Positions 52,123 to 62,272 of a stretch of DNA of 64,000 nucleotides are shown here, in pieces. The first letter of the stretch is position 1. Each line of letters starts with the position of its first letter. The position numbers were made by a program, and so were the translations under genes. The stretch lies in the IMG/VR virus record IMGVR_UViG_3300044510_000078. One strand, 5' to 3'. This DNA is from a virus. The notes under the pieces are model-generated. The model ran no database searches. It saw only the letters and a program-made list of their open reading frames with translations, and had not been told where the DNA came from.

Positions 52123-55100
52123 TTATGCTGTAACTGTTGCTGGAGTTGGTTCTCCGAACTTAGAAGAAAACTTACTATAAAGCTGATTATAAATCATTTC
52201 TCCAAATTCTTCTTTATTATCTTCAAATTTTTCTGACAATAAAGAAACCAAAGCTTCATCTCCAGTTAGATTAAATCCAATATCTAAAAATAACTTTGTG
52301 TCTGGTTGAACAGCGCTCAAGTTAGGATTACCACTGTCATTGGTGCTCGGAGTAGGATTACCACTGTCATTGGTGCTCGGAGATTTTCTATTTTTATTAA
52401 GGATTTCCTTAATGTAGCCGTTTATTTCTTTTAGTTGCGTATTTAGAGAATCTCGTTCTGTGGAATTAGAAGATACGTTTACCTTTCTGTAAAGTATGTC
52501 TCTACGTTTTTCTAACCTTTGTAAAGCGATATTGTCTTCTTCAGTAAGTCCGGCCCGACCTAGGGCTACGCCTCTAAGCGCATTAATGCTTTTTATTTCT
52601 TTTTCAGTTCCTGTCATTTTTTGATATGCAACATCAGCCGGTGTAGGGACTCCTTCTGGTAAAAACGAAGGAAAAAGTGAAGAAATTATCATGCCCCCCA
52701 GCGAGGAATGAGCAGCAGCAATACGCGCGTAGTCCATCTTTGAAAATTCCCTTTTTCCATCATCTTCTGGAAGACTGTTTGCAAAATTTTCTGCTTCTTT
52801 AAGTTTTGGATTTGGTTTATTTTCACCACCCCTTAACGCGGCCGATTTTATTTCATTTATCAACTTAATTTGATTTTCTAAAGATTTATTATGAGCATTC
52901 CAAAGCGCAACTGTTTGTGCGGCAGCCGTTCTTAAATCTGTGAAATTAGTTTTCAATCCTTGCGATTCATTCGCTATTTCCCTAAAACGCGCAAGTGCAT
53001 CGGCTATATTTGTGTCTAATTGTTGTTTTGCAAATTTTGGAGAAAGGACTTTTTCAAGCTCGTTTGCAATAGCAGAAGGCAAAACCTGTATTCCCTTTGC
53101 TATTGAAGATATATCATCCGGCATTTTATCTGATTTTAGTTCTTTGTTAATTTGCTCTTTCGCAATAAGCCCAGTCTTTGATTTTGCAGACATAAGTTCT
53201 TCTATGGCTCCGAGAATAGCCCCCCTCTTTTGCGGGTCTTTCGTGCGAGATAAAGCTCTTTCTAATGAAAGGACTTGAGTCCTAATATCTTTATTTAGCG
53301 ATTTTTCAAGGCCAACAGCCGCGATTTGCCTCAAACCTGCGCCTGACTTTCCTCCCAAATAATCGGTGCCAAGCATTTTTTGTAAATTTTGTCCAAGCTT
53401 TAAGGCTCCACGTCCACTACGAATGTCATTATTTCCTAAAATGAAAGAGCTTGCTCCACGGGCTATATTTGTATTTAATTCTCTTGCCTCGTCAGGGTTT
53501 GAGAAAGAAGAAGCTCCACCTCTAAAAGCGAGTCTTTGATTTTTGTCATATGAAAAATTTGAAATTTTAATTGCGTCAGCAGCCTTTCTGAATTCGTCTC
53601 TCATTTCGTCATTGTTTATTTTTTCTAAGATTTTATTTGCATAAATTCTTTCTTCTTTAGATATTTGATTCCCCCTCATCAAGTCATCTAAACTTCGTTT
53701 CATAATGTTTGTTGAATTCATTATTTCTGTTGTGTTGCCTCTTTTCATTATCCCTTGAAACATATTTGACACTATATCAGTTATATGGGTTTTATCTGTA
53801 TTTATGGATACCTCTTCTTCTTTTCCGGTTTTTGGATTTTTTCTTTTGGTTTTTGTTTCTGATTCAATATCTAAACTAGAAACAGCCTCGCTCAATGTTT
53901 TTTTAAACATTTGTCCAATATTGTTGATTGCCGTTTCTTTAGTTTCAAATTCTCTTACGAACCTTTCTCCAGTAAATGATGAAGCATAATCTATCCCAAT
54001 ACGTCTGTCAGTGAGAGAGGAGTCTATCTTTCGTAAAAATCCAGCTTTTATAGAAGAACGATAGTCTTTAATTGCTTTAGTAAGCAGTTCTTGTTCTGCG
54101 TTTACTAGAGATTTTTTTATTCTATTCTTTTTTATTTCTTCTGTTTCATTAGCTAATGATTCATTAACATTTCTTGCTGTGATTGCTAGAGCTTTTATCG
54201 CTGAAGTAAGAATAGAAAATTGTAGTGGGTCATTCCCCCCCAATTGAGAAAGAAATATGGCATGAGCTTTTCCAAAAATAGATTCTAATTTTTTTAAACT
54301 TTCTGTTCGTTGTCCTTCTGTTTCGAAATTTAAAGAATCAGAAGTAAAACTATCAAGCTTTCCTTTTTGCTCTTCATCCATAGACAGCAAAACTCCTTTT
54401 GCGTATGAATTAACATTTAATTCTGCCGCACTCCTACCACGACCAGAGTCAAAAAATATATTTTTATTATTTTTATAAATCTCCGCATATTTCGAAGCCG
54501 TCTCAAATTGCGAACGTTCTTTGTCAGACTTTTCTCGAAATTCTTCTATAACTTTTACTTTTTCTTTTTCTGATGTTGTATCTTGTAATTTTTTAGCTAA
54601 GCCTGCCCCACCAAGAGTAATCATATCCCTGAGCGTCGCTGAAAGTTTGCGTTTCACATTGTTTAAACTCTCCGCATCTGCATTATCTGAAGATAGAATT
54701 TCATTTTGTTTAGAAAGCAACTGAAGATATTTATCACCTTCTTGTGAAATTTTCTTATCGGTTTCGATTTTTGATTCAAGAGTTTTTATTTTGTAAGTTG
54801 CATCTCTTAGGCTTTTTTGATAAATTTCATAAACATTTATTATACCTATTGTTAAACCAGCTAATATCCCAATTGGCCCCGGCAAAGCCATCATAACTTG
54901 CGCCGAAGTCATCATTGCATTTCCAAGTTCTTGTGTCCTTTCTTTAAGAGGATTTGTATTATCCATTAAAGAAGAAGCCATTGAGACAGCGCTTGATGCG
55001 GCAAACCCGCCTCCAGTTGCATAACTTTTCCATTTTTCTACCGCCCCCTTTCTTGAAAGACTTTTTTCAACATCTCTAACTTGAGTTCTAGTTTCTACTA

Positions 55101-58100
55101 TCTCTTTTCTTTTTGCTACCATTTTCGCTTCTGCTAATTGTCTTTGACTTTCTGCATTGTTAAAATCTGCGCGAGTAACTGATGCTGCTCTGGCTTGTAA
55201 AGCTGCATGGCGCTCATCTTTAGCTTTATGAAAGGCTCCCCTACTTTCTATAACTTTTTTATTTAACATTTCTAAACTGTCTTTTAATTTTTGAGTGCCA
55301 TCAAGTAGCCCTTTTACGTTCCCTAAAGAATTGACAAACATAGTCAAACCAAACAAACCAGACGCTCCAACGCCCCCAATTAACCCATCATCTGCGAAAT
55401 TCGGAATAAAACCTTTTGCCCTTCCAGCATTTCTTGGGTCAAGACCCTTGCTTAAATAACGATTTATTCCTTGATATCCACCAATGGGTTCGTCCCTTTT
55501 ATTGGCGACTCCAATTCCGAGTGGATTACCAGTTGAAATTAATTTCTTATTAGAGAATGCATAAATTTGAGAATATGGGAGTCCAGATTGTTTTTTCTCT
55601 CTGTTTATCGCTTCAGAAACTCCGAAGCTTGGGATATAACCAAAACTTAAAGATGGAACATTTTTTATTCCAGCAATTTGAGCAAGAGTAAACCTATGAT
55701 TTCCGTCGGAAATTTCTCTATGATTTTCTGGAAAATCTCGCACGGAAATAGGATTCTTTTTTAAAAATTGATAAAGCTTTTTTTTGTTTGTTTTAGAAGA
55801 AAATAATTCTCCAATGCCAGATTTTGTAATCTCACCATCATAATCAAAGCCTATATAAGATAACAAGTTTTTCAAACCTTCAGTATGTGGACGATTAGCT
55901 TGAGATAGTGTTCCTCCAGACTCAAGGAGCTTTTTTATATTAAAAACTTTTGAAAAACTAGGAATAAATCCACGAGAAAAAGGAATAAACAAAGAGCCAG
56001 ATAATCCCCTCGTCTTAAATAAATTACCGTCTCCTTCAGCAAATGGAGCCTTGATTCCAGTAAATTTTTGGGCTCTTAAAATATTAGTTAATTCGCGGCC
56101 CGCCAGTTGGATAAGTTGTAATTGTTCCTCGCCAGAAGCATTTTTAATTTTTGCTGCCAGACCTTTTGGTAACATATGTTCGTATTTTTTATATAAACGA
56201 ACAATATCAGAGTATTTCCCTAGTTCAAGAATTTTATCTGTCTCAGACAGTTTTTGAGAAATGACATTTTTGTTATAAAGTTTGGCGATTTTTTCATTAT
56301 CAGTAAAATTACCTTGTCCTATGACGGCGACCAATTTATTAGCGACTCCAATAGAATTTCTTCCCAGATTTTCAGGAAGAGTTGGGCGACCAGAGCGAGT
56401 TCCTCTAAAAACTGTTGGGCCGCTTGTATCAGGGGTAAAACCACCCGCCAAACTTAATAACCCTTGATTATGGCCGTATTTTTTCGCAAACTTTTTGGCG
56501 GACTTAACGAATTGTTCCATATACTGTGGGTCCGATTCTTTAACGCCTTTCTTCGCTAAAACCTCTTTCAGCCAACGGCTTTGAAAGACGTTTCTTCCCT
56601 TGAAGATTAAATCTTGAGCAAAATTTGGAATATAGCCCAAAGATTTCATTATTCCTCCACGATGGGAGTCGGCGTGGATTAGCGTAGCAGTAATTTCAGA
56701 TTTACCTAACCTAGCAATTGCTTGGATATTTGCAATGGCGTCGTCATTTAAGTGATATTCGCCGCCCTGCTTTTCTTGTAGTCTTTTTAATAATAGGGCT
56801 TTTTTTTGTGCTGAATTTAATTTTGTATAACCGGGAGAATTTTTCCCTCCAGTATTTTTAATACGACCAATAGAGTTTATTCTAAGGTCATTAAACATAT
56901 CTCCAACGCCGATTACCTTCTTAGGGAATAGACCAAGTTTAGTAAGACGATTAACAATTGCGGCCCTGTTTTCTTTTGAGCTTCTTGCTGTTAGGACTTC
57001 TACTTGTTTTCCAATCAAGCCCTCTCCATGAGGTGTTAGTTTAGAGCTAGGATGAAATATAGATTTTTCAGGAGTAAATGTGTCCGCATAGCCGACTTCT
57101 GGCCCATAGGTTAAAAGAGTTTCGTCCAAGTCCTGAAATACTCTTTGAGCAAAATTCGGGATATGACCCAAAGAAGCTAACCCAATTCTAAAATTTGTAT
57201 AGTTTCCATAGGCTCCTGCATTTTCTGAACTTTTCTCGAAAGATTTTGTATTGAAGCCATGTTTATCAAGAAAGCTCCTTACGAATTTTATACTGCCAAA
57301 TTGCGCCCTGCTATTTAATTCTTCGTCGGCGTTGAAACTCGGCATATCAATACGGATTTGCTTGTAGCCCATTTTCTTGAGCATACCCATATTCACTTTG
57401 AAAGCTTGATAAGCGTCTTTTGCGTTTCTAATGGTTCTTAGGTCTATATAAGCTGGCCTGTTAGCGGCACTTGTCTCTCTTGAACCGAACTTTGTTTGTC
57501 CGTAAACGGCTTTGAGCCCAGAGACTAACTTGGAGTTTATTTTTGTTCCAAAGTCTGCGGTTAGCTTTGTAGAATAAGAGTATGCGCTAACTCCTCTGTT
57601 TGCTATGCCTCCACCAGCTTGAAAAAACATACTACCTAAGCTTTGGTCAATTCCAGATTCTACATTTGACAAATTAGGATTTGTATATGAACGAACTATA
57701 TTTGGGCGGCGCTGCGCTTGTCTGATAAAATTAGATAGCTCATCTGCACCTAAAGTTCCCCTGCGGCCTATTGTTGGAACTCTCACTCCTAATTTAGATG
57801 CTGCGTATAAGAACAACTCGTCCGATAAGCCAATTCCTTCTTTTAATTTTTCGAGAATACTTTGTCCATTTGGCAAATTAGCACAGGCTTGTGTTACTTT
57901 TTCTATAGTTTTTTGAGAAGCGAAATTAGGGATATAACCGCTTGCTGCGAGCATTGGCGCTCTTGAAGATTTATTTAACAAACTAAGACTCGATACTCCC
58001 AGTCTGTCTTTTAGAATTTTAGCCGCCATGCTTTTTCTTGCGTCGTCAGAGTCGGAAGATTTGAACTCGGCTTTTCTTCCAATAGGCAAAGGAAGACCTA

Positions 58101-60558
58101 ATGGACTTTTAAAAATCTTTGATAGTTGAGCGGGGATAGCCGCTATATCAAAATCCCCCCCGCTTGTAGTTCCGGCCACTTTTTCTCCAAATGCCAATCT
58201 CATCCCTGACTCGAAAACACCACCAACAACTGACTGGACCGCACCGAGAAGTCCCTTAGACTCGTTCATAGCTCTATGCATGGCTTTTGAAGCCGTAGCT
58301 TGGGATATGGCGGGACCAAAAGTGCCAGCAAATCCAGCAACTTGATTTATTAAAAATTCATTAATATTTTTATTTAAATCAATAGGAGGATATACCGAAT
58401 CTGGACTAAATCCAAATACCCCGAATGGTAATAAATGGCCACCAAGCCTTTTGATTCTCCTTCCTTGAATTGGGATTCGAGGTTTTGAATAAGAAAGCAA
58501 AGAATAATCGGAAACACTTAATGTCCTTATCGCCTCTGGAATATTTACTGATGATTTAGATAAATCTTTCTCTGTTTGTTTTTCTTTCGTGCTTACGTAT
58601 CCAGCTTGCGCTGCCTGTTCTGGTGTTATTTTTCCAATTCTTATTTGATGAGGAATTTGAAATTGATTAAATGTTTGTCCATTAATAGTATAAACATCTT
58701 TCGCAAAATTAGGAACCCACCCCCTCATGTATTTAGGAATAACCATCGAATCCCCACTACGAGTAGGCATACCCATCGCTCTAAATTGAGCGCCGGTGAT
58801 TTCCTTTTCGTGATTATTCATTATGAATGGGCGACCACCAATTGTTCCTTTACCCCATTGTGCCCTGACAGAAGAAGGAGCGCCCAATCTTCTAGCCGAA
58901 GCTTCTTCTATTGCAAAAGCTGGAACGTGACCAGCGGCAGAAGTTTTAGGAGCGCCAAATAAATTTGTTACCGAAGTTCTAACTCCAGACTTAACCATTT
59001 GTAGAGCTATATCCTGCGCGACTTTTGCCTGAAAAGCTAAAAGAGAATTTTCATCTCTTATACTCTGTAGAATTCTTTGATGCGCCTGTTCTACTGTCAC
59101 AGTTCCTCGATTTATTTCTTTGAGAATTTCTGGATTCTTCTGAAGATAAAGAAGGACTTGTTGTTGTATTAATTGATAATCTTTTGCGGATTGATTGATT
59201 CCCATGAATTCTCTAAAAGAATCGCCAGCAAATCTTGTCAATTTTTCAAAAAGCTTCAACACTGTAAAAGTCAACAATTGGACGCCGGGACCGCTCAATA
59301 ATTGCCCAAAAGATTTTAGAAATCCTTGAAAGATTTTGTCTCCAATTCCTTCTCCAATGGCAGAGTCTCCTATATTTTTCGCTAAATCTCCAAATGTATC
59401 CAAACCCCCTTTAAGGGTCGGAGAAAGGGTAATATTTCCCACGTTTGCCGCTGCTCTTGTAAAGTTATTTAATGTTTGAGTGAGTTTGGCGGAAATTGTT
59501 TGATTTAACTTATTATTTCTGTCTATCGCGTCATCAACTGTATTATTGGCGGTTTTAAGAGCTGAATCGTAAACGCTTACTCCATTGCCTAAGTCTTGCA
59601 GAACAGCTTTCAAAATGTTAATTTGATAAACCCCACCAACAGTTTCAGCAATTGAAGACCTTTGAGAACCGCTTAGATTGTCATATTGTCTAGCTAGACT
59701 TTTTAGAACATCAATTAACGGCAGCGCATTTCCAGAAGCGTCTTTAGTAGCTATTCCAACTTCTTGTAATTGAGAAATCACCTCTGGACGTTGCAAACGA
59801 GTAAAAATAGTCTTAAAAGAGTTACCAATAACAGCACCACCGCGAGCCGTAGTCTGTTGCGCTGTAGTAATTAAGGCAATAGTTTCATTTAGCGAAATGT
59901 TCGCTTCACTGGCCGAACTACCCACGCGTTTTATACCTTCCGCTAAATCTCCAGCGCTTACAGAAAATCTAGCGTCAACAGTTGCCAATCTATTAACAAG
60001 TTCGATAGCTGTTAAGGACTCTGTATTAAAAGAGTTAAGTGCGGCAGTAATAGAAGCAACGGCATCTGCATAATCAACGCCAGATAATCTACTTAAAATC
60101 AAAGAAGCCCTAGTCCTTTCCAATGTTTCAGCAGCAGACAAGCCCTGTCTCGAAAATTCTTGAGCAGCTTTCGCCGCGTTCCCAAATGATGTAGCGGTAT
60201 TGTTAGCTACTTCAAAAAGCCCAGTAGAGAATCTACTTAGTTCTTTCTGTGACAAATTAAGAATGGCATTGATGTCTGAAAGACTTTTTTCTACTTCAAT
60301 TGTAGAACCAAGCAACTTATCAAATGCAATTTTTACAGCGGCAATTGCTCCAGCAGAAGCTCCGAACGCGATAACACGAGCGTTAGACGCTTCAAGAGAT
60401 TTTGAGAACTCAGAGGCTTTTCCAGTGATTTTTCCTAGAGGCTGGTCAATTCCAGCGACATTCAATGAGCCAAGTCTCCTTGGCCTATTTAAAGCCCTAT
60501 CTATGACCTGTTCCAGCGGCCTTGGGTCACCACCCACTGTAAGAATAATATCTGGCAT
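52123..60558 (-). CDS. tail tape measure protein (TP901/PhageMin_Tail type), 2811 aa, with an internal cassette array
   Basis: VEKSLSDINAIL...AKAAQEFSRQGLSAAETLERT...IVNRLATVDARFSVSAGDLAEGIKR...GAVIGNSFKTIFTRL; long Ala/Gly/Lys helical tracts; located between chaperone-like genes and tail-tip genes. Confidence 0.92.
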   Translation of the reverse strand: MPDIILTVGGDPRPLEQVIDRALNRPRRLGSLNVAGIDQPLGKITGKASEFSKSLEASNARVIAFGASAGAIAAVKIAFDKLLGSTIEVEKSLSDINAILNLSQKELSRFSTGLFEVANNTATSFGNAAKAAQEFSRQGLSAAETLERTRASLILSRLSGVDYADAVASITAALNSFNTESLTAIELVNRLATVDARFSVSAGDLAEGIKRVGSSASEANISLNETIALITTAQQTTARGGAVIGNSFKTIFTRLQRPEVISQLQEVGIATKDASGNALPLIDVLKSLARQYDNLSGSQRSSIAETVGGVYQINILKAVLQDLGNGVSVYDSALKTANNTVDDAIDRNNKLNQTISAKLTQTLNNFTRAAANVGNITLSPTLKGGLDTFGDLAKNIGDSAIGEGIGDKIFQGFLKSFGQLLSGPGVQLLTFTVLKLFEKLTRFAGDSFREFMGINQSAKDYQLIQQQVLLYLQKNPEILKEINRGTVTVEQAHQRILQSIRDENSLLAFQAKVAQDIALQMVKSGVRTSVTNLFGAPKTSAAGHVPAFAIEEASARRLGAPSSVRAQWGKGTIGGRPFIMNNHEKEITGAQFRAMGMPTRSGDSMVIPKYMRGWVPNFAKDVYTINGQTFNQFQIPHQIRIGKITPEQAAQAGYVSTKEKQTEKDLSKSSVNIPEAIRTLSVSDYSLLSYSKPRIPIQGRRIKRLGGHLLPFGVFGFSPDSVYPPIDLNKNINEFLINQVAGFAGTFGPAISQATASKAMHRAMNESKGLLGAVQSVVGGVFESGMRLAFGEKVAGTTSGGDFDIAAIPAQLSKIFKSPLGLPLPIGRKAEFKSSDSDDARKSMAAKILKDRLGVSSLSLLNKSSRAPMLAASGYIPNFASQKTIEKVTQACANLPNGQSILEKLKEGIGLSDELFLYAASKLGVRVPTIGRRGTLGADELSNFIRQAQRRPNIVRSYTNPNLSNVESGIDQSLGSMFFQAGGGIANRGVSAYSYSTKLTADFGTKINSKLVSGLKAVYGQTKFGSRETSAANRPAYIDLRTIRNAKDAYQAFKVNMGMLKKMGYKQIRIDMPSFNADEELNSRAQFGSIKFVRSFLDKHGFNTKSFEKSSENAGAYGNYTNFRIGLASLGHIPNFAQRVFQDLDETLLTYGPEVGYADTFTPEKSIFHPSSKLTPHGEGLIGKQVEVLTARSSKENRAAIVNRLTKLGLFPKKVIGVGDMFNDLRINSIGRIKNTGGKNSPGYTKLNSAQKKALLLKRLQEKQGGEYHLNDDAIANIQAIARLGKSEITATLIHADSHRGGIMKSLGYIPNFAQDLIFKGRNVFQSRWLKEVLAKKGVKESDPQYMEQFVKSAKKFAKKYGHNQGLLSLAGGFTPDTSGPTVFRGTRSGRPTLPENLGRNSIGVANKLVAVIGQGNFTDNEKIAKLYNKNVISQKLSETDKILELGKYSDIVRLYKKYEHMLPKGLAAKIKNASGEEQLQLIQLAGRELTNILRAQKFTGIKAPFAEGDGNLFKTRGLSGSLFIPFSRGFIPSFSKVFNIKKLLESGGTLSQANRPHTEGLKNLLSYIGFDYDGEITKSGIGELFSSKTNKKKLYQFLKKNPISVRDFPENHREISDGNHRFTLAQIAGIKNVPSLSFGYIPSFGVSEAINREKKQSGLPYSQIYAFSNKKLISTGNPLGIGVANKRDEPIGGYQGINRYLSKGLDPRNAGRAKGFIPNFADDGLIGGVGASGLFGLTMFVNSLGNVKGLLDGTQKLKDSLEMLNKKVIESRGAFHKAKDERHAALQARAASVTRADFNNAESQRQLAEAKMVAKRKEIVETRTQVRDVEKSLSRKGAVEKWKSYATGGGFAASSAVSMASSLMDNTNPLKERTQELGNAMMTSAQVMMALPGPIGILAGLTIGIINVYEIYQKSLRDATYKIKTLESKIETDKKISQEGDKYLQLLSKQNEILSSDNADAESLNNVKRKLSATLRDMITLGGAGLAKKLQDTTSEKEKVKVIEEFREKSDKERSQFETASKYAEIYKNNKNIFFDSGRGRSAAELNVNSYAKGVLLSMDEEQKGKLDSFTSDSLNFETEGQRTESLKKLESIFGKAHAIFLSQLGGNDPLQFSILTSAIKALAITARNVNESLANETEEIKKNRIKKSLVNAEQELLTKAIKDYRSSIKAGFLRKIDSSLTDRRIGIDYASSFTGERFVREFETKETAINNIGQMFKKTLSEAVSSLDIESETKTKRKNPKTGKEEEVSINTDKTHITDIVSNMFQGIMKRGNTTEIMNSTNIMKRSLDDLMRGNQISKEERIYANKILEKINNDEMRDEFRKAADAIKISNFSYDKNQRLAFRGGASSFSNPDEARELNTNIARGASSFILGNNDIRSGRGALKLGQNLQKMLGTDYLGGKSGAGLRQIAAVGLEKSLNKDIRTQVLSLERALSRTKDPQKRGAILGAIEELMSAKSKTGLIAKEQINKELKSDKMPDDISSIAKGIQVLPSAIANELEKVLSPKFAKQQLDTNIADALARFREIANESQGLKTNFTDLRTAAAQTVALWNAHNKSLENQIKLINEIKSAALRGGENKPNPKLKEAENFANSLPEDDGKREFSKMDYARIAAAHSSLGGMIISSLFPSFLPEGVPTPADVAYQKMTGTEKEIKSINALRGVALGRAGLTEEDNIALQRLEKRRDILYRKVNVSSNSTERDSLNTQLKEINGYIKEILNKNRKSPSTNDSGNPTPSTNDSGNPNLSAVQPDTKLFLDIGFNLTGDEALVSLLSEKFEDNKEEFGEMIYNQLYSKFSSKFGEPTPATVTA
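52323..52382. repeat. perfect 2 x 30-bp in-frame tandem duplication in the tape measure 3' end
   Basis: TAGGATTACCACTGTCATTGGTGCTCGGAG twice; encodes PSTNDSGNP(T/N) twice. Confidence 0.95.
55393..58932 (-). repeat. dispersed peptide repeat G-[YFHW]-[IV]-P-[NSA]-F-[AGS], 8 copies plus 1 degenerate, inside the tape measure
   Basis: GHVPAFA 58912-58932, GWVPNFA 58702-58722, GYIPNFA 57919-57939, GHIPNFA 57148-57168, GYIPNFA 56617-56637, GFTPDT 56425-56442, GFIPSFS 55951-55971, GYIPSFG 55621-55641, GFIPNFA 55393-55413. Confidence 0.9.
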
Positions 60559-60595: not shown

Positions 60596-61480
60596 TTAGC
60601 GAGTAACGTAATTCGTTTTTTTATAAATGCCGTCAGGTTGATTATTTTTATTCTTATTTTGGTAAATGGAGTGTTCAGTGTCATACCAGTCCACCAACTC
60701 TTTTACAGTAGTATCTTCGTGAATATCTGGCGGATTATTTTCTGAATTTTCTATTATTCTGATATTTCTTACTGTCTTGGAAAAAAGATTCAACTGATAA
60801 TCAGAAAAAGCTATAATTGGTTTCCCAAAAAACTCATATGGCCTATCTTTACAAAAGCTAATTTGGTTTATGACAAATGGAAGCGCCGCTAAAGACCCGA
60901 GACTTGTTTCTGAAAATTTAGAAAATGCCCTATTTTGTTCTTCTATTAAATTGTCTAGCTCAGACTCCTCTACGGCATCAAATTCATCACTAGAAAAAGC
61001 CTTTATTTTTAATTGTTCATCTTTATAGAACCCATGAAATACAAATAAAGAAAGCAAATATTTTTGAGCCAAAATATCAGCGGTAGGATTTAGTGCGGAA
61101 TACCTTTCCATTAACAAGCTGTTGAGTTCTTGTTTTTTTTCGGTAATTACTTTTTCTATAACTTTTCTTTGCTCTAGGAGTGGCATATTGGCCACGACTT
61201 TTGAGTTGTCAGAAATTAAGTATTTTAATTCTAGGATTTTTTCTTCTTTTTCGGGAAGCCAAACTCCTTGTTCGGCTAGGATTTTAAGTTTTTCCGATTC
61301 AGTTGGAACACCCTCTGAGTTTTTTAACTTTATATAGGCTGATTTTTTTTCAGCAAAGAATGAGTTATCTAATTCTGAAAAATGCTTTATATACCAACTC
61401 GTTTTTTCGCTAAAAGAATAGCCATTTACTATTTCCTTAAATAAGGAGCGAAAATTTTCATATTCATCATAGACTAACAC
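60596..61480 (-). CDS. putative tail assembly chaperone (second)
   Basis: 294-aa helical, charged protein immediately upstream of the tape measure; GTG start. Confidence 0.55.
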   Translation of the reverse strand: MLVYDEYENFRSLFKEIVNGYSFSEKTSWYIKHFSELDNSFFAEKKSAYIKLKNSEGVPTESEKLKILAEQGVWLPEKEEKILELKYLISDNSKVVANMPLLEQRKVIEKVITEKKQELNSLLMERYSALNPTADILAQKYLLSLFVFHGFYKDEQLKIKAFSSDEFDAVEESELDNLIEEQNRAFSKFSETSLGSLAALPFVINQISFCKDRPYEFFGKPIIAFSDYQLNLFSKTVRNIRIIENSENNPPDIHEDTTVKELVDWYDTEHSIYQNKNKNNQPDGIYKKTNYVTR

Positions 61481-61492
61481 ATGATGATAAAA

Positions 61493-62272
61493 TTATACCG
61501 GCTCTTCCACTACGACATAATCATCAAATTCATTACTATATAAGTCTTCCAAATTCTTAACGTCGTTTTGTGACAAAGACCCAGTTGTTGACCAATAGCT
61601 GACAAAATATGCAAGTTTCCTCATTACTTCATTAAGAAAAGCGTCGCCATTTTCTTCTGCTTTGTCGTATGAATCTAATTTCTGTTCATAAGAATCGCCC
61701 GTAAAGATAGGGACAAATTCTCCTTTTTCATTTTCAATTACGCCTAAGTGTAGCGTCCACCAAAAGACCGCTTTGTTTCTTGCTTTGACTTCCGCCGTTT
61801 GATTAAAGATAGAGTAATACGGACTCTGGATAGAATCAATCTGTTGTTGAGTTTCTTGCAGTTGTAATAGAGTATCGTTTTGTTTTTTTTCTTGTTCTGG
61901 AGTTTTAGGAGTAATAGCTGCCGACTCTAATAGCTGCCTGTTGAGGTCTTTTCTTTTTACGTCCAGAAGTTCTATGGTCTTTTTTTCGTCATCATTTAAT
62001 GCGCCGCCATCGTTGTCATATCTTTTCGCAATCATATGAAGACTTAACAACCCTTCTTTCATAAGTTGCGAAAGGGTTTTAGCATAGAAAGTTTCTGCGC
62101 CTTCTCTAAGTTTGCGCGTTGGTTTGATAAGTTTGACCTTGACAGGCTTGGCTTTTTTGATAGACTTTGTTACTTCGACTTCTTTCCCTTCGTCTATCTT
62201 TTTTTCTGTAACTTTGTCTTCAATTTGTTTTTTGACAACGAATTCGCAAAGATATTTGTTGACTACTTCCAT
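61493..62272 (-). CDS. putative tail assembly chaperone (first)
   Basis: 259-aa coiled-coil-rich protein between the tail tube candidate and the tape measure. Confidence 0.55.
   Translation of the reverse strand: MEVVNKYLCEFVVKKQIEDKVTEKKIDEGKEVEVTKSIKKAKPVKVKLIKPTRKLREGAETFYAKTLSQLMKEGLLSLHMIAKRYDNDGGALNDDEKKTIELLDVKRKDLNRQLLESAAITPKTPEQEKKQNDTLLQLQETQQQIDSIQSPYYSIFNQTAEVKARNKAVFWWTLHLGVIENEKGEFVPIFTGDSYEQKLDSYDKAEENGDAFLNEVMRKLAYFVSYWSTTGSLSQNDVKNLEDLYSNEFDDYVVVEEPV

Follow-up and report, generated by a model that had tools for sequence, protein, structure and literature searches.

The 64,000-nt stretch of DNA analysed here (referred to as the window) is part of the 164,097-bp genome of an uncultured virus (record IMGVR_UViG_3300044510_000078). 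Its minus strand, on which all features described below are located, carries an intact open reading frame (ORF; P0001, positions 52123–60558) encoding a tape measure protein (TMP) of 2811 aa. The middle of this TMP is built from eight segments of 58–254 aa (S1, S2, S3, S4, S5a, S5b, S6 and S7, in order from the N-terminus), which are delimited by nine copies of a short peptide and together with these copies span positions 55393–58932. Across a large family of related TMPs, S1, S2 and S7 form a conserved core, whereas the segments between S2 and S7 vary in number and identity.

The ORF encodes a TMP of the TP901/PhageMin_Tail type, as had also been proposed in an earlier, sequence-only reading of the window. 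It contains a PhageMin_Tail domain (PF10145) at aa 117–309 (Pfam; E-value of 5e-31, 108.5 bits vs. a cut-off of 33.2) and matches 13 PHROG TMP families (best E-value of 4e-49). Moreover, its flanking genes are syntenic with those around the 2,209-aa TMP of IMG/VR contig L001 (26–38% identity). The PhageMin_Tail and PHROG matches mark a conserved N-terminal TMP domain (aa 1–542; 58933–60558) that stands out strongly in the family consensus. The C-terminal 1,089 residues (aa 1723–2811; 52126–55392) form a helical tape, the family profile of which matched the solved TMP 9l9p_B (E-value of 2e-6) and coiled-coil proteins.

A recurring peptide between folded domains

A regular-expression scan revealed eight strict copies of the motif G[YFHW][IV]P[NSA]F[AGS], i.e., GHVPAFA (copy 1; aa 543–549; 58912–58932), GWVPNFA (copy 2; aa 613–619; 58702–58722), GYIPNFA (copy 3; aa 874–880; 57919–57939), GHIPNFA (copy 4; aa 1131–1137; 57148–57168), GYIPNFA again (copy 5; aa 1308–1314; 56617–56637), GFIPSFS (copy 6; aa 1530–1536; 55951–55971), GYIPSFG (copy 7; aa 1640–1646; 55621–55641) and GFIPNFA (copy 8; aa 1716–1722; 55393–55413). 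A ninth, degenerate copy (GFTPDTS) is located at aa 1373–1379 (56422–56442). The scan thereby exactly reproduced the copies, segments and range given in the sequence-only reading. From the composition of the protein, 0.0002 copies would be expected by chance in the TMP and 0.02 in the six frames of the genome, and no strict copy was present outside the TMP ORF in any other frame of the genome.

When the middle region was used as a query, a word-indexed search returned 99 TMPs and an exhaustive HMMER search 393 clusters. The strict motif occurred in 171 of the 184 TMP-sized relatives that were fetched, with 1–11 copies each. A logo of 626 unique instances read [AKFY]-A-[SGK]-G-[FY]-[IV]-P-N-F-A, in which G, P and F were fixed by the search pattern itself, the N was present in 97% and the final A in 82% of instances, and essentially no information was found outside positions –3 to +6. 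The family consensus of this junction peptide can be written as A-x-G-[FY]-[IV]-P-N-F-A, with variants such as GFVPNYA also present among the relatives. The back-translated motif occurred nine times in four other records (4.3 Mb) vs. zero times for a reversed control, and all four occurrences on the L001 contig fall within its TMP gene.

At the DNA level, the copies in the window differ in synonymous codons (GGT/GGG/GGC/GGA, CCA/CCT/CCG, TTT/TTC and GCA/GCG/GCT), and the longest exact runs common to them measure only ~8 nt. Since the peptide is nevertheless near-invariant, selection appears to act on the peptide and not on the DNA. In this respect the motif departs from demarcation motifs of the polymorphic-toxin type (VENN, PxxxxDPxGL), which are conserved as DNA and can thereby serve homologous recombination. 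An intein or another self-cleaving element was considered as well and set aside, because the Asn is not followed by a nucleophile and the 10 residues of the motif are not embedded in a conserved structure.

The structural context of the peptide was taken from two AlphaFold models. Model 1 covers the frame of a 33%-identical homolog (P0007, from contig L002; 40-sequence alignment), and model 2 covers aa 1308–1646 of the window TMP (mean predicted local distance difference test score (pLDDT) of 83). In model 1, the S1-, S2- and S7-like modules were folded with a pLDDT of 70–93, and stretches with a pLDDT below 50 were located at residues 1–16, 78–92, 324–343 and 411–426; in model 2, such stretches comprised residues 1–18, 55–68, 223–229 and 333–339. 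Every motif copy in both models, including copies 5 and 7 near the two ends of model 2, was located within or at most ~2 residues from one of these low-confidence stretches, between domains with a pLDDT of 70–97. Copy 5 itself had a pLDDT below 50, and stretch 223–229 of model 2 consists of precisely the seven residues of copy 6, which separate S5b from S6.

According to these models, the middle of the TMP (aa ~543–1722) consists of independent globular domains strung together by low-confidence linkers, and is neither helical tape nor one continuous domain, in agreement with the sequence-only reading. Sequence searches with the middle region alone and with three profiles against solved structures yielded only coiled-coil or chance matches. 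Because the junction peptide is near-invariant, sharply bounded and situated in predicted flexible linkers, its behaviour suggests a short linear motif that is read by another molecule.

Core and accessory domains

When all 99 TMPs were cut at the motif and the resulting pieces clustered, 89 clusters were obtained, 54 of which were singletons. A recurrent frame emerged in which the N-terminal domain is followed by a motif, a small module, a motif, a domain of ~250 aa, a motif, a module of ~65 aa (cluster c0), a motif and the helical region. In the window TMP, the three modules of this frame correspond to S1, S2 and S7, and their presence in most family members indicates that they are conserved core and not swappable cargo. 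The proposal that all eight segments are interchangeable cassettes thus held for the accessory segments S3 to S6, which do vary, and had to be given up for these three.

The small core module S1 (aa 550–612; 58723–58911; cluster c2) had phmmer matches in 90 TMP-sized relatives, and its counterpart in model 1 consists of a helix and four strands (pLDDT of 85–92); neither Pfam nor PHROG, searched also with the cut-out core modules, assigned it to a known family. The most conserved small module is S7 (aa 1647–1715; 55414–55620; cluster c0), with phmmer matches in 135 TMP-sized relatives, a pLDDT of 88–93 for its counterpart in model 1, and the conserved pattern A..RE..AG.P..IYV..NP.G..V.N.RDEP.

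The ~250-aa core domain S2 (aa 620–873; 57940–58701) belongs to cluster c4, which was linked by hhalign to clusters c1, c5, c9, c12 and c32 (77–98% probability each). It contains residues E784, D804 and E831-x-K833, which are part of an FE..FD..DFK pattern conserved in 61 sequences of the S2-type clusters, and this E..D..(D/E)xK arrangement makes S2 a candidate PD-(D/E)xK nuclease. The pattern named in the sequence-only reading was located and is conserved. The corresponding fold found no support: the S2-like domain of model 1 (pLDDT of ~70–89) retrieved no nuclease from Foldseek searches of the PDB, from a wide VIA search (best Z-score of 4.2, to an unrelated structure) or from BFVD, although a match could have been missed because a three-domain model was searched. 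No credible match to any part of model 1 was obtained in any of the fold searches.

Downstream of the last motif, a hydropathy peak marks a hydrophobic segment (aa 1886–1910; 54829–54903) at ~160 aa from copy 8. Only one other stretch of the TMP, which starts near aa 60, is strongly hydrophobic. The segment downstream of copy 8 has the appearance of a membrane-spanning or glycine-zipper segment, with GPxGAxxGxxxG kept at this position in the family consensus.

The accessory cassettes are spread unevenly over the TMP-sized relatives (S3 in 2, S4 in 10, S5a in 4, S5b in 5 and S6 in 9), in differing combinations and positions, and no similarity among the segments could be detected, as had been noted before. 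Pfam and PHROG searches with seven of the segments and with four other giant TMPs returned almost nothing, the cassettes of the latter giving no Pfam match at all. The catalytic-type motifs to which the sequence-only reading had drawn attention (DLDET, DGNHR and E..D..ExK) were all located in the TMP.

S3 (aa 881–1130; 57169–57918) is nearly unique, with only two partial relatives; it is absent from the L001 TMP, and gave no lead in Pfam, PHROG or ESM Atlas. S4 (aa 1138–1307; 56638–57147) appears to be a HAD phosphatase-like domain. Its motif I (DLDET) is located at aa 1143–1147 (57118–57132), and HAD motifs I–IV are conserved in order among the ten members of its family (FyDFDETL, iLTAR, SAqKKA and nLiDD), consistent with the earlier assignment. 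No Pfam match was found for S4; its look-alikes in ESM Atlas were the viral HAD families Phage_T5_dNMPase, HAD_SAK_1 and HAD_PNKP (score of 0.90–0.93), and its free-standing homolog P0162 matched PHROG 415, a polynucleotide kinase (E-value of 1e-5).

The degenerate motif copy is flanked by S5a (aa 1315–1372; 56443–56616), a 58-aa helical segment in model 2, and S5b (aa 1380–1529; 55972–56421), most of which was modelled with a pLDDT of 88–97. The model places S5b in the ADP-ribosyltransferase (ART) fold, which had not been recognized in the sequence-only reading; its chemistry, and a transferase activity in particular, are putative. VIA-align matched it to the catalytic domain of diphtheria toxin (Z-score of 6.3–6.5, root-mean-square deviation of 3.5, 110 aa, 17% identity), and further matches comprised ParT, MbcT, RES, cholix, exotoxin A, PARP and the anti-CRISPR protein 6kyf. 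One exception was the top match, residues 1418–1597 of a cyanophage A4 pre-ejectosome protein (PDB 9k3a, chain B; Z-score of 6.6), a region to which the cyanophage A4 paper assigns no enzymatic function. Within the S5b family, the [YF]RG motif (at 56401–56412 in the window) is invariant, a Ser is kept, and an Asp is conserved near the expected strand. One metagenomic homolog of S5b (P0125; 299 aa) carries a NUDIX hydrolase as an N-terminal fusion (E-value of 1e-16), which suggests that the chemistry of this family involves NAD or ADP-ribose.

S6 (aa 1537–1639; 55642–55950) has a ParB/sulfiredoxin (Srx) fold, as judged from both its model (pLDDT of 88–97) and its sequence, in line with what had been proposed. 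Foldseek retrieved ParB, KorB, Noc and SbnI with a probability of 0.84–0.99 (0.80–0.99 with Srx included), and all VIA matches (Z-score of 5.0–6.1 over 76–83 residues) were of the ParB/Srx type, including free serine kinase and sulfiredoxin. The Pfam match to ParB_N was sub-threshold (E-value of 0.006; 17 bits vs. a cut-off of 26.3). The DGNHR motif (aa 1618–1622; 55693–55707) is invariant in 15 members of the S6 family, with conserved flanking residues. The GC content of S6 is 0.30 overall and 0.17 at third codon positions, vs. 0.37–0.41 for the neighbouring cassettes and 0.377 for the genome, and this low value may reflect a more recent acquisition. Since the matches of S5b and S6 are consistent within one fold family each, we accepted both fold assignments in spite of their middling Z-scores.

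Exchange of cassettes among related tape measure proteins

TMPs that are 91–99.8% identical over their first 540 residues carry different strings of cassettes, as for example in the pairs P0018/P0027, P0003/P0013 and P0009/P0010. Clean breakpoints were obtained in two pairs, both of them at motif copies: P0018 and P0027 are ~90% identical until motif 2 ends and diverge beyond it, and P0060 differs from P0042 by a single 234-aa insert bounded by two motif copies. Likewise, the L001 TMP can be aligned with the window TMP as far as S2 and once more starting with S6, lacking S3 to S5, with the junction at a motif. In other TMPs, the ends of S4-, S5b-, S6- and S7-like modules meet motif-like peptides far above the background of 4.8%, and most segments between motifs measure 55–320 aa. 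These alignments indicate that cassettes are gained, lost and exchanged with breakpoints at the junction peptide, and they bear out the expectation that the number and identity of cassettes vary among homologs with motif and flanks fixed.

Homologs of some cassettes also exist as free-standing proteins, i.e., eight for S5b (111–299 aa), five for S6 and one for S4 (P0162). Those of S5b begin just past the position of the degenerate motif copy, and the S5b and S6 homologs that were checked end at the domain end and lack the motif, indicating that the motif belongs to the TMP context and not to the domains. Two of them that were looked up (one for S5b and one for S6) are situated amid small ORFs that all run in one direction, as is typical of accessory regions in phages. 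Two short motif-bearing proteins, P0214 and P0180, turned out to be fragments on contigs of 1.5–1.7 kb and offered no evidence for genes split at the motif.

Among cultured phages, the N-terminal domain matched only TMPs of Bacillus and Lactococcus phages (25–30% identity). The metagenome-assembled genome bins that hold relatives bear discordant taxonomic labels (Flavobacteriales twice, others once) and point to no single host.

Two further features of the TMP family and its locus were noted. A tandem direct duplication, PSTNDSGNP-T-PSTNDSGNP, is present near the C-terminus of the window TMP (aa 2727–2745; 52324–52380), in the region expected at the tail tip. The ten genes neighbouring the TMP gene have no Pfam or PHROG annotation, and the two directly upstream of it (60596–61480, 294 aa, and 61493–62272, 259 aa), which keep their order in L001 with 30% and 38% identity, may by their position encode tail assembly chaperones.

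Possible roles of the cassettes and relation to known systems

With moderate confidence, we favour the interpretation of a modular, cargo-carrying TMP, in which a conserved frame holds exchangeable, enzyme-like accessory domains between its motif copies. This frame would comprise the N-terminal TMP domain and the motif-joined modules S1, S2 and S7, followed by the hydrophobic segment and the long helical ruler, and each insertion would add one domain plus one extra copy of the junction peptide between the motif copies of the frame. In this phage, the inserts would be the 250-aa S3 and the HAD phosphatase-like, ART-fold and ParB/Srx-fold domains. On ejection, TMPs precede the DNA out of the tail and pass into the envelope of the host, and cassettes carried along could serve as virion-borne enzymes in the first moments of infection, with host nucleotides, NAD or proteins, or DNA as conceivable substrates.

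The junction peptide would in this interpretation act as a short linear motif recognized in trans, most likely by a site-specific protease that frees the modules in a polyprotein-like manner, or alternatively by a docking partner required for threading or loading the chain of beads. The scan and the models did reveal what a protease-processed polyprotein would have, namely a short site that recurs in the predicted flexible linkers joining its domains. Cleavage at the peptide is nevertheless put forward tentatively, and we hold it to be somewhat doubtful. Slightly less likely still is the full scenario of a true virion polyprotein, in which each A-x-G-[FY]-[IV]-P-N-F-A junction would be cut during or after ejection by a protease dedicated to this task, from either the phage or the host. 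A phage-specific and rapidly exchangeable mixture of enzymes (phosphatase, ADP-ribosyltransferase-like, ParB/Srx-like and others) would thereby reach the cell before the DNA.

Several observations weigh against a cargo-carrying TMP with a processed junction. Delivery of the cassettes to the host is argued by analogy with the established biology of other TMPs, and several TMP chains with folded domains of up to 250 aa would have to fit in the tail tube. No protease was detected with Pfam or PHROG in the TMP or its ten neighbours. An A or S replaces the near-invariant N in three of the nine copies of the window TMP and one copy is degenerate, so that a single function cannot be required at all junctions. 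As to the cassettes, their fold matches have middling Z-scores (5–6.6), no catalytic Glu is conserved in the S5b family, which could mean that S5b is no transferase, and no function could be assigned to S2 or S3 by the searches made. Finally, no match to the middle region was found by tblastn in 50,697 cultured-phage records, leaving the family without a cultured carrier.

A different role for the peptide would be that of an assembly or docking motif that is never cut and that binds the tube lumen, a tail assembly chaperone or other TMP chains. The bead chain would then be held in register inside the tube, and the cassettes would stay tethered and, if active, act at the envelope within an intact TMP. 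A sharply bounded peptide in flexible linkers fits docking as well as cleavage, and the failure to find a protease by Pfam or PHROG in the TMP and its neighbours agrees with it. Moreover, motif pairs also flank small core modules and, in TMPs such as P0044 and P0008, long helical stretches near the C-terminus, suggesting a role in the frame, and segments of mostly 55–320 aa are what would be expected for beads in a narrow lumen. However, the number of copies (1–11) tracks the number of cassettes and not tail length, the docking partner is hypothetical, and 7–10 identical residues between unrelated domains are a classic signature of polyprotein processing. We regard docking without cleavage as only slightly less likely than cleavage itself.

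It is improbable that the inserted domains are structural filler or inactive relics that lengthen or stiffen the ruler or aid envelope penetration. Such a role would be in keeping with the S5b family lacking the catalytic Glu, with S1, S2, S3 and S7 lacking a recognizable enzymatic family, and with the empty Pfam results for the cassettes of the four other large TMPs. In contrast, the S4 family retains HAD motifs I–IV, and the S6 family DGNHR with its flanking residues; free-standing homologs occur in phage-like arrays of small genes, one being fused to NUDIX; and the rapid turnover of cassettes among near-identical TMPs resembles that of conflict-driven cargo and not that of structural parts.

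Least probable is the idea, raised in the sequence-only reading and not supported here, that the motif is a DNA-level recombination anchor (here without any protein function) comparable to the conserved sequence preceding the variable toxin tips of CdiA and Rhs: the breakpoints between related TMPs do fall at the motif, but linker breakpoints are also expected from selection for folded products, and the synonymous differences leave exact runs too short for homologous recombination even though the amino acids are near-invariant across instances.

Should the cassettes of a modular, cargo-carrying TMP indeed be delivered, TMPs would constitute a major unrecognized route for injecting anti-host or anti-defence enzymes, and the motif would offer a simple way, from sequence, to detect cargo in viromes and to delimit its domains. 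The family is widespread, with 393 sequence clusters matching the middle region, all of them from uncultured sources. The partner of the peptide, be it protease or docking site, would add a new part to the machinery of tail assembly or ejection, and a polyprotein, if true, would amount to a general, programmable route for protein delivery through siphophage-type tails. Further study could also draw on new protein families from this TMP, namely S5b, S3, the ~250-aa core domain S2 and the small modules S1 and S7.

The arrangement can be compared with several known systems. In viral polyproteins, e.g., at potyvirus NIa sites, a sharply bounded peptide of ~7 residues likewise returns in the flexible linkers that join unrelated folded domains. 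Unlike in potyvirus-type polyproteins, no protease was found here by the Pfam and PHROG searches, cleavage is hypothetical, and the carrier is a structural protein of a dsDNA phage. TMPs with an embedded cell-wall hydrolase are a second precedent, as mycobacteriophage TM4 Tmp, SPbeta CwlP and T5 Pb2 carry one or two envelope-directed lytic domains that act during entry, and are not known to have a repeated delimiter. They share with the present family a catalytic-type domain in a TMP carrier. Two relatives (P0009 and P0055) have a longer N-terminal part that contains a VanY D-Ala-D-Ala carboxypeptidase domain (PF02557), showing that the family also holds classical cell-wall-directed TMP domains. 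In contrast to these lysin-bearing TMPs, up to ten cassettes with cytoplasm-type folds are found here, and they appear to be exchanged at a fixed peptide.

A parallel in domain content is offered by polyvalent proteins, i.e., giant polypeptides of phages and conjugative elements in which numerous unrelated domains of the conflict type, ParB-like and ART domains among them, are combined and undergo mosaic shuffling. Their delivery together with the DNA has been predicted, and their processing into units proposed (Iyer et al. 2017, PMC5512222). Hallmark domains of these proteins include a zincin-like metallopeptidase, and they are packaged in heads or delivered by conjugation; the same paper mentions neither tape measure proteins nor a junction motif. 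As in polyvalent proteins, several unrelated effector-type domains (HAD-like, ART-fold and ParB/Srx-fold) are joined in one phage polypeptide. Unlike in polyvalent proteins, the carrier is a TMP, the same peptide stands at every junction, and no peptidase domain was detected: Pfam found nothing besides PhageMin_Tail in the whole TMP, although a remote zincin-like metallopeptidase could escape it.

A TMP-like scaffold that carries an exchangeable domain, is loaded in the tube and is ejected has been described for TMP-related effectors of contractile injection systems (CIS), in Streptomyces lividans (Sle1; PMC13277306) and S. davawensis (PMC11126660). As described there, those effectors differ from the present TMPs in having a single C-terminal functional domain, in belonging to intracellular actinobacterial CIS and not to a phage tail ruler, and in lacking a repeated junction motif. 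T4 Alt and P1 Dar, finally, stand for ADP-ribosyltransferases and anti-restriction proteins that are packaged in the virion, delivered at infection and modify the host (PMC7824862, PMC5512222). S5b has the ART fold as well, but is a domain of a TMP and not a separate head protein, and its family lacks a conserved catalytic Glu.

A published description of motif-delimited TMP cassettes was not found in the literature searched, nor were IPNFA or VPNFA found there in a phage context. What is new thus seems to be a junction motif that is widespread in a TMP family, together with the union of the injected-effector concept and the TMP-embedded enzyme. TMPs have been known as rulers with an occasional lysin, and polyvalent effectors from heads and conjugative elements, and the family described here would join both.

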